This document shows positions 1-19,148 of a DNA stretch of 64,000 nt, one piece after another; the first letter of the stretch is position 1; each line of letters opens with the position of its first letter. The translations under genes and the position numbers were made by a program. The notes under the pieces were generated by a model. It saw only the letters and a program-made list of their open reading frames with translations. It searched no databases and had not been told where the DNA came from. Source of the stretch: Bacilli bacterium (GTDB lineage: Bacteria; Bacillota_I; Bacilli_A; RF39; UBA660); contig CAAERO010000019.1 in the NCBI GenBank assembly GCA_900758495.1, forward strand, positions 14,252-78,251, in the 5' to 3' direction.

Positions 1-1492
1 CAATTATATCGTAATAGTTTTCAAAGCCCTAAAAACGCTTATAAACAAATGTAGAACCTAAAGAATTAGTACCTGACTAATCGTGATCATAAGGGTCTAC
101 TCCAAGTATATATAAACCAATAGGAGCATCTTTTACAGGATGTTCCCATATTACTATAGAACCAGTAGGATCATCGTCTTTACCTAGTGGGTATTTAGTA
201 ATATCACCTTGTTTCTTTACTATCCACTTTAAGGATCCATCAGATTCCCACACTAAATCCCCTATTTGTTTATGGTTGGTTAACTTCTTATTAGTGCGTA
301 TTCTTGCTAATTGTTCTTGTAGTTCTTTCTTAGGAAATATGTTACCATTGAATTCCAAACACGCTTCAGCAGGAGTAATAGGACGTTCCGCAATATATCT
401 ATCTACGGCTACAGAATTAGTAGAATTCTCAATAACTATCTTTCTTTCAGACAGTATATACTCCCTTGCTTTATAGGTCAGAGTATTACCATCATTATCC
501 ATATACAGACGATTACCTTTATCGTCACGTATATCCATGTTGGCATACTAAGGTATAAAGAATCCGCATTTAGTGTTGTCTACTGCTTCATCCCAGATGT
601 TATTAAGTTCGAGGCAATTAAATCCTTTTGGCTTATAAAACATCTCTTTAAGTGTAGCAAAGTTAGAATCCGTATCACCACCTGTACCATATGCAATCAT
701 AGTACCAAATGCTATACCGTCTGTCTCTACAGAAGGTCTAGCAATTTGCCATGCCGCACTTAATTCTTTAAAAGAACCGGCCTCTTCAAACATAATAAGA
801 TTAGCAATCTTACCACGTACTACATCTGGATTATCTTTCAAAGTAACTCCAATGATTTCAGACTTATAACCTACTTCAATCTTATTACCGTATTCATCAG
901 TAACCCACATACCTGCTCTACGTCTAAGCTGAGTACTAACAGATCTCTTTTTACTCCATGCAGTATGTTCGTCAATAAAGTCCATGTAACCCCAAGCTTT
1001 AGTAAGAGTACCATCATCTGTCAAATACTATTTATTAGATGCATATACATATGACTTAGAATCAGGTATTAAATAGTAATTACGACATAGCATAGCAGCA
1101 CATTTGTATGAGTAACCCTTACGTCTGGATTTCAATACACACAAATGTTTACCCTCTTCTTTGCATTGTTCTACACATTGGAAGTAGTAATAGTCATAAT
1201 CCCAGAAATCAGGGAATGTAACAATGTGTTCTGATTTATTCTTACCATCCACTATACGATTAACCTAACGATAAATAGGACAGTAATTTAAATAAAAATA
1301 GTTATAGCCACTAATGAAATCTCCATCATCAGCAGTATAACCATTAATACATTTCTGCTACTCTTCCTACCAGAAACGCATATATTCAGCCGTACCTTTA
1401 GGGTACGGACAATATGAGCCAGTTGCTATAAACTATAGTGCTGGCTTTCTAAATTTATTACTATTTAATATCCTTTTGTTAAAATCGACCAT
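1..1492 (-). CDS. terL: Terminase large subunit (TerL); C-terminal part runs off the left edge; needs TAG read as sense
   Basis: Track fragments 77..538, 548..1024 and 1028..1252 share one frame and are separated only by TAG (cta on + strand at 77, 548, 1028). The frame stays open up to ATG at 1492 across 4 more TAGs (PAL*FIA, FW*EE*QKC, IYR*VN) and down to base 2 across a TAG at 29-31. Terminase-like motifs: LKSRRKGYSY, LIMFEEAGSF, GVDPYDHD. Confidence 0.85.
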
Positions 1493-1500
1493 GTTTAACT

Positions 1501-1535
1501 ATAATAAAAGGGGCACGTTTCACAACGGACCCCTT
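1501..1535 (-). terminator. Possible intrinsic terminator between the suppressor tRNA and terL
   Basis: GGGG (1510-1513) pairs with CCCC (1530-1533), with flanking A/T pairs. On the minus strand the hairpin is followed by UUUUAUUAU. Confidence 0.4.
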
Positions 1536-1733: not shown

Positions 1734-1808
1734 TGGTAGCCCCACTAGGATTCGAACCCAGACTAAGAGGGTTAGAGCCTCCTGTGCTAGCCATTACACC
1801 ATAGGGCA
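1734..1808 (-). tRNA. Amber suppressor tRNA, anticodon CUA (reads UAG); probably Gln-type
   Basis: The reverse complement folds as a cloverleaf: acceptor (U)GCCCUA / UGGGGC(U), U8 G9, D arm GUGU-AAUGGCUA-GCAC, anticodon arm GGAGG-CUCUAAC-CCUCU, variable UAGU, T arm CUGGG-UUCGAAU-CCUAG, A73, encoded CCA (tgg 1734-1736). The anticodon is the complement of + strand tag at 1773-1775. Confidence 0.85.
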
Positions 1809-9902: not shown

Positions 9903-10663
9903 CTTCTTTAATGCGACCAACGTCAGTGACAAGTCTGATAAATGCAGAGTCAAAGAAGCTATTACAGTTTATTATGCACAAATAGATTATAATAGTAAAA
10001 CCACGTGGTAAGGGCACAGTTAGGTTCGCTGTGAGTGCGCCCTTTGTAGCAACTAACCAAAGCAAGTATAGATGGGAATAAGCTATTACCTCGATAGGCT
10101 TAATGAGGTGCTTGACAGTCTGACACTAACTGAACAATAAGTGTCAAATAACTCTCTACTGAATCACAGGCTCGAGACGTTTAAGAGTTAGCGTGTGTAG
10201 GTAGAGAGTTCTTTAAGGTGAGAATCCTTGACAAGCATGTGGGGCTTATATCTATCTATAAACAAGGAGACGGACTAATTTTTATTAGTACAAGGAGTCG
10301 GTTATAGTAGTATTAGTGCAGACTTTAAAATCATGCAGTATAACAATCTTCCATATACTAATGCAATAGTGAACTTCTGAATCATGTTATACTTATTAGT
10401 CCTAAGCGTAGGATAGTCCTCAACTTATTATGTTCCGTTAGCTTAATATGGATTTGTGGAATACTAAGAGTAGTATTGCTAGTATGTTTATATGTGAATA
10501 TAGGTATACTAGTTGCACTCATAAGGCAGCCTTCACGTGGCGAGTGTGTTAAGTAATAGGTTAAATAAATCTTCCAGTTTGTACCTATGAAAACTAATGC
10601 CTTATAAAATTAGTCAAAGTCTTTTATATCAATATATATTGTTTAATTAAAATTATCAAAATT

Positions 10664-10930
10664 ATGAGACAAAGTGTAATTAATTACGTGAAAGAGAATG
10701 GTATTAAGTTAGCTGCTAATTCAAAGGCATTAAAACTTATCAACAACGGAGCATCCGAGGCAGAAGTAGCTGTAGCTTTGCAGACTACAAAGGCATATAA
10801 AGAGGATTCTACTCTTCGTCAGATGTGCCAAGAAGTTGTTGCTGAGGCTGGCAAGGAACAAGCTGACAGTGCTAAAAAACCAGAGAATCATTCAAATTCT
10901 GCTCGTAGAGGAGAAAATGAACGATACTAG
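10664..10930 (+). CDS. Hypothetical protein (88 aa); ends in TAG
   Basis: Intact ORF with the conserved TTATCAAAATT-ATG start context. A strong terminator follows. Confidence 0.65.
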   Translation: MRQSVINYVKENGIKLAANSKALKLINNGASEAEVAVALQTTKAYKEDSTLRQMCQEVVAEAGKEQADSAKKPENHSNSARRGENERY

Positions 10931-11007: not shown

Positions 11008-12303
11008 ATGACTAAGTGGCAAGAATCGTGCATTACAGCACTCGCTTCATCCCCAATGGCATGGGAAGCCTTTAAAATGAAGCAAAGAAACAGAAAGTTA
11101 TTATGGCAATATATAAATCGTATATGGCCATATAAACTGATTGCAGGAACGAAAGTAAATAAAAATAAGAAAGATCTTCTCGCTATTGCTAGAATACTAA
11201 AAAACCTATCATCTACAATTCAATATTATGTTCCAGGTATAGAAAGGGCAAGTTGTATAGAAGACGTTGATGTTCGATTTGATAAAGTAGACTGGCTTTG
11301 TATTAAAGATATTATATCGAAAGAAGATAGCGAATATAAAAGAATAGTTAGAGGAGCATATTGTGGCAATCACTTATTTTCTTTAGATTACACTTACCTA
11401 GATGATGATAATTTTGAAAGTTGGTGTATGTCTGGAGGCAATCATAATCTAATAGATGTTCTTAATACTTGTTTTGGGGAGTGTTATCTCCATGATCATT
11501 GTTATATAACTGGTATAAGATTTCATTCTAACATTACAAATACATATAATATGTTATTGCAAATGCAAGATGAAATAACTTATATTCTGTGTAAGATAGT
11601 TAAAACTATTGAAGGTGTTAAAGGTAATACTTTAAAGTACACCTTAAAAGACAGAAGAAAATATAATTCTTTAAATGTCGGTATTGAAATAGAACATGAT
11701 GCGGAATATCCTACACCAAATAAGATTCAAAGAGCTATCTTACTTAATAACTGTGTATCATATGATTCAGGTTATGATGGCAACTCTTCTAATAGGCTAC
11801 GAGAAAATCGTATTCGGTTAAATGGTATTAAAGGCTTAAAAGGCTTGTATATACTATTAACTAATATGAAAGAAAATTGTGCGATTGCCAAAAATAGTAG
11901 CGTACATATGCATATTGATTGTAAATATGACAACTTCTTTATGGATCGTAGTAAATTCTATAAAGGAAGTGAAAAAGATTGCATATATGGTATGGTAGAT
12001 GTTCTAGCTATTAGAATGAGTAAATATCAATCTAATACGGATAGTGCTTTGCAAATTATATCGGATATTGTAGAATATGAAGTTACTAGATATCATTTTA
12101 ATACTAGTGATTATACTAGATATGATAATGAATTTAACACTATAGAATATCGATTCGCGAAAATAAATTTTAACTATTCTGATTATGTTATACAAATTTT
12201 GACATTTATTCATATAACGGAGTGCATTAAGCATGATGCTCCGTTTAACATTCAGTATTTAGAGTTACTATATAAAGTAATGAAGAATCTGAATAATAAT
12301 TAG
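11008..12303 (+). CDS. Hypothetical protein (431 aa); ends in TAG
   Basis: Long intact ORF. Possible metal-site motifs (GIEIEHDAEYP, SSVHMHIDC) but no family assigned. Confidence 0.75.
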   Translation: MTKWQESCITALASSPMAWEAFKMKQRNRKLLWQYINRIWPYKLIAGTKVNKNKKDLLAIARILKNLSSTIQYYVPGIERASCIEDVDVRFDKVDWLCIKDIISKEDSEYKRIVRGAYCGNHLFSLDYTYLDDDNFESWCMSGGNHNLIDVLNTCFGECYLHDHCYITGIRFHSNITNTYNMLLQMQDEITYILCKIVKTIEGVKGNTLKYTLKDRRKYNSLNVGIEIEHDAEYPTPNKIQRAILLNNCVSYDSGYDGNSSNRLRENRIRLNGIKGLKGLYILLTNMKENCAIAKNSSVHMHIDCKYDNFFMDRSKFYKGSEKDCIYGMVDVLAIRMSKYQSNTDSALQIISDIVEYEVTRYHFNTSDYTRYDNEFNTIEYRFAKINFNYSDYVIQILTFIHITECIKHDAPFNIQYLELLYKVMKNLNNN

Positions 12304-14441: not shown

Positions 14442-14870
14442 AAATGTCCTTTATATTTAGTTATTGATAATTATTGCACTTGTTCGTGAGAATAGGTGCA
14501 ATTGCCTAAATGAATGTCTTCAGAAGATGACAAACCTGTGGGGCGTAAGTAATAAAGAGTCTGAAAGATTGCAGATAAGAGTATGCACTTATTGGCAATA
14601 TGCATACCAGAATAATTTATTATGATCGTGCGGACGTTAAAATCAGGTACTCCAATAAGATTTAGTTTTGCAGCTATTTCTGCTTATGAGTTAAAACTAA
14701 GCGAGAGCTTAAAATTGAAATTGAGACTATTCTAGTTTCGGTAAATAAGTAAAAAGCGTTTTACAAGTCTCTTATTAACAAGTGTAAGGTGGATATTAAC
14801 TGTTCAACAAAAAAATCCAGAATATCCTGGTCGTCGTCAATTGAGTTATTAACTTTTAAATATTTAAAAG

Positions 14871-16154: not shown

Positions 16155-16527
16155 CCCTAAACAAGTTAGTATGGTGCAGTCAACCCAAGCTACTATTTAC
16201 CAACCAAAACCCTAATGGAAGCTTAGAAATAAGCAAGAGTACAATGGACTATACAACGGTCAACCAGGTATTACTATCTAGGTCAGGTGAAGGAAAGGGG
16301 TTGCCTATGAATAAGGAATACGAATAAATAGGATAGTAGCATTAAGGGTATATAGCTTTGATCGGCTATATACCCACAATAAAAGTTAACTATAAAAATA
16401 GCAGGAGTATTGTATAACATAACGAAGGCCTACCTGTAGAGAGTGCTGTGAAATAGATTATTCTATGAAGTATGGCTTAATTCTGCACGCGAGTTATACT
16501 TTAGTTAACTTTAAAGAAATTGACTGT

Positions 16528-16578
16528 TAGGTCTATTGAATCGTCGTTTGGACACGGGTTCGACTCCCGTATGCTCCA
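16528..16578 (+). ncRNA. ssrA: tmRNA-like acceptor piece (3' half of the tRNA-like domain), located upstream of its 5' partner
   Basis: GGUCUAUU-GAAUC-GUCGUU, then UGGAC, T arm ACGGG-UUCGACU-CCCGU, 3' acceptor strand AUGCUCC and A73. This parallels the E. coli ssrA 3' end ...GGAC-GCGGG-UUCAACU-CCCGC-CAGCUCC-A. Confidence 0.65.
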
Positions 16579-16671
16579 CTATGTTCGTTCGACTCGAACC
16601 AGTGGCAGCTCCTGTGATGGGTAACTCTTCCTCATGTGTGAAATAACACAAATGGCAACTGAGCTGCAATC

Positions 16672-16813
16672 GGGGCATTATGGTTTTGACAGCGACATAG
16701 AGGAGATAGAATAGGTCAATAAGCAGATAACTGGCAATACAAGTTATGTAACAGATTACACTCGCTTAGTAGCGTGATAATCTGAACGGCTCGCCATTGT
16801 CGTAAAAGGCTGG
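16672..16813 (+). ncRNA. ssrA: tmRNA-like coding piece: 5' acceptor strand, P2 strand and tag reading frame
   Basis: GGGGCAUUAUGGUUUUGACAGCGAC parallels E. coli GGGGCUGAUUCUGGAUUCGACGGG. GGGGCAU pairs with AUGCUCC (16571-16577) and gives a G3:U70 pair. AGCGAC and AAUAGGUC pair with GUCGUU and GGUCUAUU of the upstream piece. Frame 16733-16774 encodes GNTSYVTDYTRLVA, followed by TGA TAA (16775-16780). The 3' boundary is uncertain. Confidence 0.65.
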
Positions 16814-16891
16814 GGTAAGTAGTTTCATAAGGCTTAGAAACGCTAACACTGATAAAGTTAGAAGAGGGAGGTTCGAATCCTCTCCTTACCA
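16814..16891 (+). tRNA. Non-canonical tRNA-like gene, possibly tRNA-Ile(GAU)
   Basis: Acceptor GGUAAG(U)/(C)CUUACC + A73, D arm UUUC-AUAAGGCUUA-GAAA, T arm GGAGG-UUCGAAU-CCUCU. The anticodon arm is CUAAC/GUUAG enclosing 9 nt (ACUGAUAAA). That can also be read as a canonical CUGAUAA loop (anticodon GAU, 16851-16853) closed by an A.A mismatch on a 6-level stem. A8 replaces U8, and 7:66 is a U.C mismatch. Confidence 0.5.
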
Positions 16892-17159: not shown

Positions 17160-17418
17160 CATCCTACCTCAAGAGTGGGATTATGTTCTTAGAAAGAACA
17201 AAGTTCTAACAAGAGTAATAGATTTAATCTATGAAAATTGTATACCTCAAAGCTGGCGTAACAATAGAATGCATAAGCGTTCTGTTGAACGCATAAGACA
17301 TCTAATTCGCAATTGTCCTTTTATAGATTGCTTTGATGCAAGAGCAACTAGTGAAGGATACGATTTTTGGAAAAGAATTGATTTAGAAATTATAAATTAT
17401 AAAGAACAATGTCGGTAA
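17134..17418 (+). CDS. Hypothetical protein (94 aa)
   Basis: Intact ORF overlapping the previous gene by 26 nt. Confidence 0.55.
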   Translation: MSVKKAINDILPQEWDYVLRKNKVLTRVIDLIYENCIPQSWRNNRMHKRSVERIRHLIRNCPFIDCFDARATSEGYDFWKRIDLEIINYKEQCR

Positions 17419-17600
17419 AGAAAATTGAAATTGTTCCTTGGGTAAAGTTTAACGCTCAAGGAGTCAAAGACGAATTAGAAGCTTTAGCTCAGTCTTGTAT
17501 CAGTAAAATGGATTTTCTTTCTCAGATTAAGGATAAATATGAACTTTCTTTATCTGATGCAAAGGTAGTAGCAGACAAATTTTTCAAAAAGGAGGAATAA
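17409..17600 (+). CDS. Hypothetical protein (63 aa)
   Basis: Intact ORF within operon-like packing. Confidence 0.55.
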   Translation: MSVKKIEIVPWVKFNAQGVKDELEALAQSCISKMDFLSQIKDKYELSLSDAKVVADKFFKKEE

Positions 17601-18599: not shown

Positions 18600-19148
18600 A
18601 TGAAAGAAGAAGAAAAGCTTCTTGTAGAGCAAGCTAGAGAAGGTTCCGAAAAAGCTTTTAATACACTTTATAATAACTATTATAAAACAGTCTGGTATAC
18701 TGCTAACAATGTAGTACATAATTCAGATGCAGCAGATGATATAACATCTATGGTATTTACTAAAGTATATTTAAAGTTACAATCTTATACTAATCATATT
18801 TCATTTGAAATGTGGTTAAAGACAATTACAGTTAATACTGCAATTGACTATATAAGACGGAATAAAAAAGAGCAGTTAAATAACTATATTGATGATGAGG
18901 AGTCAAAGATTCAATTAAGCGGATTAGAACACAGTCCAGAAGATGATATGATATTTCAACAGAATATTAATATTGTTATGGAATGTATTCCTCGTCTTAA
19001 GAAAAAGTATAGAGATTTAATATATGCTCGACTTGATGGGAAATCCTATCAGCAAATTTCACAAGAGCTTGCCATACCAGAAGCAACAGTTAAAACCTGT
19101 TTAAATAAGGCAAGACAAAGACTAAAACAATTATTTAACCAATATTAA
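18600..19148 (+). CDS. ECF-type (group 4) sigma-70 family RNA polymerase sigma factor
   Basis: Region 2: AFNTLYNNYYKTVWYTANNVVHNSDAADDITSMVFTKVYLKL and SFEMWLKTITVNTAIDYIRRNKK. Region 4: LKKKYRDLIYARLDGKSYQQISQELAIPEATVKTCLNKARQRLKQL. Confidence 0.85.
   Translation: MKEEEKLLVEQAREGSEKAFNTLYNNYYKTVWYTANNVVHNSDAADDITSMVFTKVYLKLQSYTNHISFEMWLKTITVNTAIDYIRRNKKEQLNNYIDDEESKIQLSGLEHSPEDDMIFQQNINIVMECIPRLKKKYRDLIYARLDGKSYQQISQELAIPEATVKTCLNKARQRLKQLFNQY

Follow-up and report, generated by a model that had tools for sequence, protein, structure and literature searches.

Circularly permuted genes for transfer-messenger RNA (tmRNA) that give rise to two-piece molecules are known from Caulobacter-type alphaproteobacteria, some betaproteobacteria and cyanobacteria. 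All of these share the gene order acceptor piece, spacer, coding piece; the two pieces are joined by an acceptor stem and helix P2, the molecule carries alanine identity, and a tag open reading frame (ORF) is followed by a stop-codon helix. A general processing model for permuted tmRNA genes relies on RNase P and tRNase Z (PMC3985003). Here we describe an element at positions 16519-16813 (plus strand) of a 64,000-nucleotide (nt) stretch of contig CAAERO010000019.1, hereafter called the window, which has the same order of pieces. It is very probably a functional tmRNA (ssrA) gene in circularly permuted form, carried by a crAss-like phage (family Suoliviridae). The gene belongs to a phage gene family that has already been annotated, and its lineage is distinct from those of the classical two-piece tmRNAs.

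A sequence-only reading of the window had proposed such a gene and could verify no precedent in a phage. Precedents do exist in the form of the two-piece tmRNAs of marine phages, the entries of Table S1 of PMC9004378 (Buchholz et al. 2022) and RefSeq annotations. That table lists as 'Permuted' CrAssphage cr115_1, cr114_1, cr10_1, cr50_1, cr273_1, cr272_1, cr131_1, cr130_1, cr125_1 and cr124_1, and seven RefSeq genomes of the Suoliviridae bear the feature 'transfer-messenger RNA, SsrA' at this locus (cr52_1, cr60_1, cr114_1, cr115_1, cr125_1, cr7_1 and cr124_1). The gene is present yet unannotated in cr4_1, cr56_1, cr113_1, cr53_1, cr6_1 and cr109_1; half of the RefSeq relatives lack the annotation because ARAGORN fails when it meets introns, long spacers or unusual T loops. 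RefSeq viruses have also been screened for a tmRNA database paper. The existence of the gene and its permuted call are already on the public record, and our literature searches found no paper on the crAss-like phage tmRNA, its structure, its origin or a link to recoding. Its Bacteroidota ancestry, a minimal architecture that lacks pseudoknot 1 (PK1), punctuation by tRNA-like elements and the presence of intron-bearing alleles appear to be undescribed so far.

Results

A permuted gene order in a crAss-like phage

BLAST searches with the locus and with the surrounding 15 kilobases (kb) matched solely 'uncultured phage crNNN_1' RefSeq genomes and human faecal phage scaffolds, which identifies the window as a crAss-like phage of the Suoliviridae; the closest relative is cr4_1. 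The elements of the proposed gene, all on the plus strand, are as follows.

16519..16578, plus strand: acceptor piece, based on sequence, ARAGORN and Rfam matches, covariation and a sharp onset of conservation at ATTGAC in relatives
16519-25, 16532-37 and 16543-48, plus strand: 3' strands of P2c, P2b and P2a, respectively
16550-16553, plus strand: GGAC of the acceptor piece
16554-58, 16559-65 and 16566-70, plus strand: T arm, ACGGG, UUCGACU and CCCGU
16571-77, plus strand: 3' acceptor strand AUGCUCC, followed by the discriminator A at 16578
16579..16671, plus strand: intervening spacer of 93 nt, presumed to be excised, unconserved in relatives
16672..16813, plus strand: coding piece of 142 nt, based on sequence, ARAGORN, Rfam and alignment counts
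16672-78, plus strand: 5' acceptor strand GGGGCAU
Within the coding piece, plus strand: D-loop analogue UAUGGUUUUGAC
16691-96, 16705-10 and 16714-20, plus strand: 5' strands of P2a, P2b and P2c, respectively
Between P2c and the resume codon, plus strand: 12-nt single strand with U at -5 and A at -4
16733-16774, plus strand: tag ORF GGC...GCG, then UGA UAA at 16775-80
16752-58/16778-84 and 16763-66/16771-74, plus strand: outer and inner stems of helix P5
16786-90/16799-803 and 16792-95/16808-11, plus strand: S1 and S2 of a candidate pseudoknot
16814..16891, plus strand: tRNA-like element, Ile-GAU-like with an extended anticodon stem, based on the Rfam tRNA model

The tmRNA-type 5' end, GGGGCAUUAUGGUUUUGAC, begins at 16672 as had been proposed. 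Every element of the 3' end that had been assigned to 16551-16578 is likewise present, except that GGAC starts at 16550 and the proposed start was therefore one base late. Only the first C of the terminal CCA is encoded. The two strands form the seven-base-pair acceptor stem with G3:U70 that the sequence-only reading had described, and no plus-strand site in the 64 kb other than 16571 combines 7/7 pairing to GGGGCAU with a following A and a five-base-pair T arm directly upstream. An ordinary one-piece gene is ruled out, as the window holds no downstream 3' partner and no match at threshold to the standard tmRNA model (RF00023). Because the partner strand is absent downstream, the gene order is truly permuted, and the identical order is seen in complete related loci.

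Two detection programs agree with this arrangement. ARAGORN independently calls a permuted tmRNA ('tmRNA*') at 16487-16868 with the tag GNTSYVTDYTRLVA. Among the Rfam 15 models, the general permuted tmRNA model (RF04321 tmRNA_permuted) matches 16519-16777 with 47.8 bits (gathering score, 47; E=2.5e-6 over the window), whereas the models for the alphaproteobacterial, betaproteobacterial and cyanobacterial permuted forms (RF01849, RF01850 and RF01851) give no match at their gathering scores in the window. Relatives score between 37.5 and 50.9 with RF04321, and the best lineage-specific match among them is beta_tmRNA in cr53_1, at 27.4 versus 84. In one locus of our collection (L123, 1435-2059), ARAGORN reports a spurious second 'tmRNA*' that overlaps the 3' end of a real one-piece Bacteroidales tmRNA. 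Given that spurious permuted calls occur and that the Rfam margin is thin, detection alone is insufficient, and the stronger evidence comes from comparison.

Conservation and covariation

Approximately 105 related loci were gathered by two IMG/VR pattern scans and from the BLAST hits. All of the roughly 95 complete loci have the 3' acceptor strand ahead of the 5' strand, and ARAGORN reports 'tmRNA*' in most related loci. The gene occupies a syntenic position in all 13 RefSeq Suoliviridae of the collection, which represent several subfamilies.

Acceptor piece and coding piece were concatenated and aligned (alignment A1, 45 distinct concatenations), and pairs were counted for an explicit structure. 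In these 45 sequences, 97.6% of cells are paired; sliding the 3' partners by 1-3 columns lowers this to 30-52%. Shuffles score 0.065 for covariation versus the observed 0.180, a value that none of 500 shuffles attains. Double-sided changes occur at 12 pairs, so the compensatory changes that the sequence-only reading had looked to related phages for are there. All five pairs of the T stem covary, and acceptor pairs 6:67 and 7:66 are found as A-U/U-A, U-A/A-U and U-A/G-C. By contrast, G3:U70 is constant in 45/45 distinct sequences and in cr7_1, and the discriminator is A in all.

Two genomes of the Oafivirinae, cr7_1 and cr124_1, were too divergent for BLAST to detect, and the gene is found in both at the syntenic position. 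The acceptor stem of cr7_1, GGGCGUG/CACGUCC, has four of its seven pairs swapped with compensation while G3:U70 is retained, and the P2a of this genome is AGACAGA/UCUGUCU, wholly changed yet paired. A distinct acceptor stem, GGGGCUA/UAGCUCC, is observed in cr56_1 (L007), cr113_1 (L008) and MT835588 (L012).

A reduced structure

The two pieces are predicted to be joined by a P2 helix in three parts. The pairing of AGCGAC with GUCGUU (P2a), noted in the sequence-only reading, gains support from two compensatory pairs in the alignment. The more distal helix of that reading, AAUAGGUC with GGUCUAUU, does not survive comparison, since its pairing is lost in seven of the 45 relatives and another register covaries. 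In that other register, GAUAGA (16705-10) pairs with UCUAUU (16532-37), and RNAcofold together with the alignment counts identifies two double compensatory changes, which fall in the same seven sequences where AAUAGGUC/GGUCUAUU unpairs. We have therefore rejected the earlier register for P2b in favor of the one that compensates. The helix closing P2 is P2c, in which GGUCAAU (16714-20) pairs invariantly with AUUGACU (16519-25). Conservation in relatives begins exactly at ATTGAC, and thus the acceptor piece spans approximately 16519-16578.

The resume codon follows P2c after only 12 nt in the window, compared with 12-13 nt in relatives and 23 in cr7_1. Pseudoknots PK3 and PK4 are absent, and the RNA has at most one pseudoknot, a candidate that follows helix P5. 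There, a hairpin (ACGGC/GUCGU) has a loop that can pair with a downstream AGCU (in the window, CGCC with GGCU), and the second stem of this putative pseudoknot, S2, shows one compensatory pair (UA to CG in five sequences). Reduced sets of pseudoknots are known in two-piece and organellar tmRNAs (PMC3985003). The missing PK1, PK3 and PK4 consequently argue, in our analysis, for a reduced form and not against membership in the tmRNA class.

The last six tag codons, the stops and the bases that follow form P5, a bipartite helix whose outer and inner stems in the window are CAGAUUA/UAAUCUG and CGCU/AGCG. A helix around the tag end and stop codon is a classic tmRNA feature. Folding predicts P5, with the stop codon inside it, for all variants despite differing stem sequences, including GAUUA/UAAUC, GACU/AGUC, GAACU/AGUUC and GGACU/AGUCC, with inner stems CGCU/AGCG, CGUAUU/AAUACG and CAUAUC/GAUAUG.

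The tag reading frame

The tag frame that had been proposed at 16733-16780, ending in UGA UAA, is present in the sequence, and the tag given by ARAGORN matches it. Relatives supply 29 distinct nucleotide versions of 13-14 codons that encode related peptides, for example GNTSYVTDYTRLVA (the tag of the window, to which that of cr52_1 is identical), GNFYVTDYTRIAA, GNTSYVMDYTRLAA, GNYSYITDYTRITA and DKSFVTDYTRIAA, and in the Oafivirinae GNVNNIVDYTNVA. Differences in length are multiples of three, reflecting in-frame insertions and deletions, and many substitutions are synonymous (GAU/GAC, UAC/UAU, ACU/ACA, CGC/CGU, AUU/AUC and GCA/GCG). These two properties indicate that the frame is under selection as a coding sequence. 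A core of V(T/M)DYT(R/N) is conserved in the phage tags and is absent from host tags, which are also shorter. The hydrophobic end that had been remarked upon holds throughout, being LVA in the window and IAA, LAA or ITA in other versions.

The sequence-only reading had also attached weight to the lack of TAG in this frame. Tag stops in the 45 variants are TAA in 25, TGA in 20 and TAG in none. However, only 2/40 of the standard-code ORFs in the window stop with TAG, such that avoidance is the default, and we have rejected the TAG-free frame as a signal. The two exceptions (10664-10930 and 11008-12303, plus strand) would be extended once the suppressor tRNA described below is expressed.

Signals of Bacteroidota origin

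A scan with the motif GGGG-N5-TGGTTTTGACAGCG over one genome per prokaryotic species yielded at least 120 loci; of the 80 among these that were listed, 77 are labeled Bacteroidota, and the 5' motif GGGG-N5-UGGUUUUGACAGCG is almost confined to this phylum among the matches listed. In the Bacteroidota loci that were run through ARAGORN, this motif starts ordinary one-piece tmRNAs of 369-400 nt, whose tags are GENNYALAA, GETSYAFAA, GNNNFALAA and GNTQYAMAA. The glycine that opens the phage tag had been likened to that of Bacteroidota tags, and the comparison is borne out by these peptides. Furthermore, the end of a Paludibacteraceae tmRNA, ...CGTTTGGACACGGGTTCGACTCCCGT, is identical over 26 nt to window positions 16545-16570, and the resume context UAUAACU-GGC is common to the window and the Paludibacteraceae tmRNA. 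The U and A that had been pointed out at -5 and -4 belong to this context, which is the same in Bacteroidales tmRNA.

Permuted genes are rare in this host group: among 29,415 Bacteroidota genomes, 24,380 standard and 48 permuted tmRNA calls have been tabulated (PMC11915505 Table S2). The simplest reading of these sequence signals is that a host-type one-piece tmRNA was captured, permuted and cut to approximately 200 nt in the Suoliviridae lineage. Motif sharing, as opposed to a phylogeny, points to a permutation independent of the alphaproteobacterial, betaproteobacterial and cyanobacterial lineages.

Spacer, flanking elements and introns

The spacer is unconserved and mosaic in relatives, always begins with C, and has many lengths between 63 and 192 nt, plus 601 nt in three records (cr56_1, cr113_1 and MT835588) where it holds a reverse-strand 'endonuclease' ORF. 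In cr114_1 (L004, 1593-1665) and in locus L067 a complete tRNA-His(GTG) lies inside the spacer, and a precursor of the cr114_1 type would effectively be a tRNA-punctuated operon.

Directly 3' of the coding piece, every relative has a tRNA-Ile(GAU), a tRNA-Leu(UAA) or a 45-nt minihelix of acceptor plus T arm. Its counterpart in the window, at 16814-16891, scores 27.0 bits with the Rfam tRNA model against a threshold of 29 (E=0.002) and is not called by ARAGORN; it has a five-base-pair anticodon stem, an A-A mismatch and the loop CUGAUAA (anticodon GAU). This conserved placement suggests that the tRNA-like element is probably an RNase P signal that sets the 3' end of the coding piece.

Some alleles carry a group I intron of 297-871 nt right after nucleotide 7 of the T loop, namely cr4_1 (L003, 747-1500), cr6_1 (L010) and loci L027, L040, L068, L072, L096 and L102. 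The intron of cr4_1 scores 75 bits with Rfam Intron_gpI, and some of these introns hold an endonuclease-like ORF on the opposite strand. Intron-bearing genes are missed by ARAGORN and unannotated in RefSeq, and a form that is both permuted and intron-bearing is not among the gene forms of the 2025 tmRNA database paper.

Several other structured RNAs lie upstream of the gene on the plus strand: a RAGATH-7 motif, two Hatchet ribozymes and a RAGATH-9 motif (9957-10146, 10209-10336, 14516-14648 and 16176-16343). In cr125_1, cr115_1 and MT835588, RAGATH-9 ends approximately 20 nt before the acceptor piece, a spacing that hints at a role for it in making the 5' end of this piece. A strong hairpin at 16346-16375 (plus strand), GGGTATATAGC-TTTGATC-GGCTATATACCC, directly adjoins the acceptor piece in cr60_1, cr53_1 and L119, with compensatory changes in cr53_1; in the window, approximately 140 nt are inserted between the two. 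The single match to the Bacteroides-type promoter sequence TAnnTTTG sits in the loop of this hairpin, at 16353.

Genomic context and amber recoding

The premise of amber suppression in the sequence-only reading is well founded. An amber suppressor tRNA with anticodon CUA, labeled 'tRNA-Pyl' by ARAGORN, is encoded at 1734-1808 (minus strand). The late ORFs at 40351-64000 (minus strand), including one of 4512 codons, have 11-59 in-frame TAGs each, and the ORF at 2-1519 (minus strand) has nine. Amber recoding in Suoliviridae has been published (PMC10136315). By contrast, in the plus-strand block at 8094-40334, which includes the tmRNA gene, most ORFs have zero in-frame TAGs and none has more than three.

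The gene thus belongs to the early/middle block of standard-code genes, with a phage sigma factor 1.8 kb downstream of it and the suppressor tRNA elsewhere. This sigma factor, of the extracytoplasmic function (ECF) type with Sigma70_r2/r4 domains (18600-19148, plus strand), is syntenic in all relatives and was the sole match when ten neighboring ORFs were scanned with Pfam and PHROG. A 63-amino-acid ORF at 17409-17600 (plus strand), termed 'ribosomal protein-like' in relatives, has no match in either collection.

The tmRNA gene, the tRNA(CUA) and TAG-rich late genes occur together in the window, cr7_1 and cr124_1, the genomes that were checked for all three. We sought Suoliviridae genomes with the tmRNA and without recoding, or the reverse, and found none, which leaves no contrast within the family. 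Since the co-occurrence is confined to one clade, it counts as a single evolutionary event, and the link to recoding is confounded.

Discussion

A model for the two-piece RNA

We propose that a single transcript comprises an acceptor piece of ~60 nt, the 93-nt disposable spacer, a 142-nt coding piece and the tRNA-like element. In this model, the seven-base-pair acceptor stem and the three-part P2 would join the acceptor piece to the 5' end of the coding piece, creating a tRNA-like domain. RNase P would cut at G16672 and also where the tRNA-like element begins, at G16814; a tRNase Z-type cut after A16578 followed by CCA addition would complete the two-piece RNA. Host alanyl-tRNA synthetase could then charge this RNA through G3:U70 and A73, and host SmpB could bring it to ribosomes stalled at the 3' ends of mRNAs. 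Translation would resume at the GGC at 16733, add (A)GNTSYVTDYTRLVA and end at UGA UAA, such that the ribosome is freed and the product is marked, probably for proteolysis. The parts of the tRNA-like domain that face SmpB are identical to those of the host, making host SmpB a likely partner. The most plausible reason for retention of the gene would be extra capacity for rescue and tagging during takeover of the host, including rescue from readthrough caused by the phage's own amber suppressor.

Alternative explanations

Several observations weigh against a functional tmRNA. The match to RF04321 exceeds its gathering score by just 0.8 bits, and RF00023 reaches only 30.8 versus 47. The 12 nt ahead of the resume codon leave no room for PK1, which matters for the function of E. 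coli tmRNA. Neither P2c nor pseudoknot stem S1 varies, so covariation lends them no support, and cr56_1, cr113_1 and MT835588 have a non-canonical 8-nt T loop, UAUCGUAU. A scan for sigma-70 promoters and terminators found no excess over shuffles and identified no promoter. Moreover, a tblastn search of the window with E. coli SmpB gave a best E value of 6.3, in 64 kb of a genome of approximately 97-104 kb. The model consequently requires host SmpB to accept a reduced RNA, since this search of the window revealed no SmpB. The marginal Rfam score, along with the spurious ARAGORN call in L123 and the frequent presence of 3' tmRNA gene fragments in integrative elements (PMC9004378), might suggest that the locus is a non-functional relic or a software artifact, for example an attP-like 3' fragment of a host tmRNA gene beside an unrelated 5'-like sequence, stitched into a permuted call by ARAGORN. 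This is highly improbable given that the two halves covary, with AU, UA or CG in the acceptor stem according to lineage and four of seven pairs swapped in cr7_1, which is impossible for unrelated fragments, and that the position is conserved in 13/13 RefSeq Suoliviridae of the collection and in approximately 100 contigs. We have rejected the host-fragment interpretation on the basis of this covariation. An improbable alternative, to which we give only slightly more credence, is that the tRNA-like domain serves as a decoy that titrates host SmpB or alanyl-tRNA synthetase and thereby inhibits trans-translation, with a 'tag' that is never translated. An RNA consisting only of a tRNA-like domain (TLD) from mycobacteriophage DS6A has been proposed to be such an inhibitor, and a similar molecule inhibits tmRNA in E. 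coli (PMC4131195, PMC11915505); the Suoliviridae RNA also keeps host-like motifs that face SmpB and lacks PK1. However, its tag frame, resume context, stops and P5 are conserved across deep divergence, and a decoy needs none of them.

If the RNA indeed functions as a two-piece tmRNA, its value to the phage may be unrelated to amber recoding. It could serve to raise or replace ribosome-rescue capacity, for instance when host mRNA decays or when defenses cut mRNA or tRNA, or to re-tag rescued products with a phage-specific tag of 13-14 amino acids, and we consider this a serious possibility that falls short of an even chance. To our knowledge, stop-codon recoding has not been reported for the groups that make up most of the tmRNA-carrying phages in an earlier survey, an argument for a value independent of recoding. 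These groups are mycobacteriophages, Streptomyces phages and marine phages, which form the majority of the 402 phages in that survey (PMC9004378). The same conclusion is favored by the placement of the gene close to the sigma factor within the standard-code block, at a distance from the suppressor tRNA, and by a tag that is longer than that of the host and has a conserved internal motif that host tags lack. Against it, the tmRNA, the tRNA(CUA) and TAG-rich late genes co-occur in the genomes checked, and it is established that nonsense-suppressor tRNAs generate substrates for tmRNA through the readthrough that they cause (Ueda 2002, as cited in PMC3985003). Rescue or tagging of amber-readthrough products is accordingly a plausible role with a sound premise, even if we would not expect it to be the correct one. 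The most comprehensive hypothesis joins these elements: a two-piece tmRNA that arose independently from a Bacteroidota host tmRNA by permutation and shrinkage, that lacks PK1, is punctuated by tRNA-like elements and in some phages bears a group I intron in the T loop, and that the family keeps to clear ribosomes that have read through UAG and to tag the products with its own degron. As a whole, this combination is unlikely to be right in every part.

Comparison with known tmRNAs

These phages are recoded inhabitants of the gut that switch genetic code in the middle of infection, and a rescue RNA retained across the family is a testable candidate for coping with the side effects on host and early phage mRNAs. 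Its tag sequence offers an exact search string for metaproteomics. Furthermore, what appears to be a natural minimal two-piece tmRNA of approximately 200 nt, without PK1 and with a one-piece ancestor, is relevant to the question of which tmRNA elements can be dispensed with and to how often permutation has occurred. Our finding is not the first of its kind, but it provides a handle on how amber-recoding phages manage translation. Relative to the tmRNAs already annotated in crAss-like phages in RefSeq, it is the same gene at the same position upstream of the sigma factor, and nothing of substance differs; those records and the rows of Table S1 are, respectively, automatic feature lines and table entries that give no structure, origin or division into two pieces.

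The closest resemblance is to the one-piece tmRNAs of Bacteroidota, with which the phage RNA shares GGGG-N5-UGGUUUUGACAGCG, ...CGUUUGGAC leading into the T arm, UAUAACU before the GGC resume codon, a tag that begins with glycine (GNTSY... in the phage) and a CCA of which only the first C is encoded. The host RNAs differ in being approximately 370-400 nt long and unpermuted with a full set of pseudoknots, whereas the phage RNA is approximately 200 nt long, is in two pieces and has a longer tag. The coding pieces of the classical two-piece tmRNAs typically keep PK1 and PK2 (PMC3985003), in contrast to the phage RNA, which has no room for PK1 and displays signatures of the Bacteroidota type.

Among phages, the Bxz1 group of mycobacteriophages likewise encodes tmRNAs that depend on host SmpB, but theirs are one-piece. 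The TLD-only RNA of phage DS6A has no tag frame, while the Suoliviridae gene keeps a conserved tag frame and P5. The permuted tmRNAs of marine phages such as OM43 phage Melnitz, pelagiphages and cyanophages are also phage-borne, were found with ARAGORN and resemble the lineage related to their hosts (PMC9004378). Unlike those of marine phages, the Suoliviridae tmRNA has no riboswitch attached and is flanked instead by a tRNA-like element. More fundamentally, the marine phages copy a form that was already permuted in alphaproteobacteria or cyanobacteria, whereas the host lineage of the Suoliviridae gene is one-piece, and the permutation therefore seems to have arisen in, or for, the phage.

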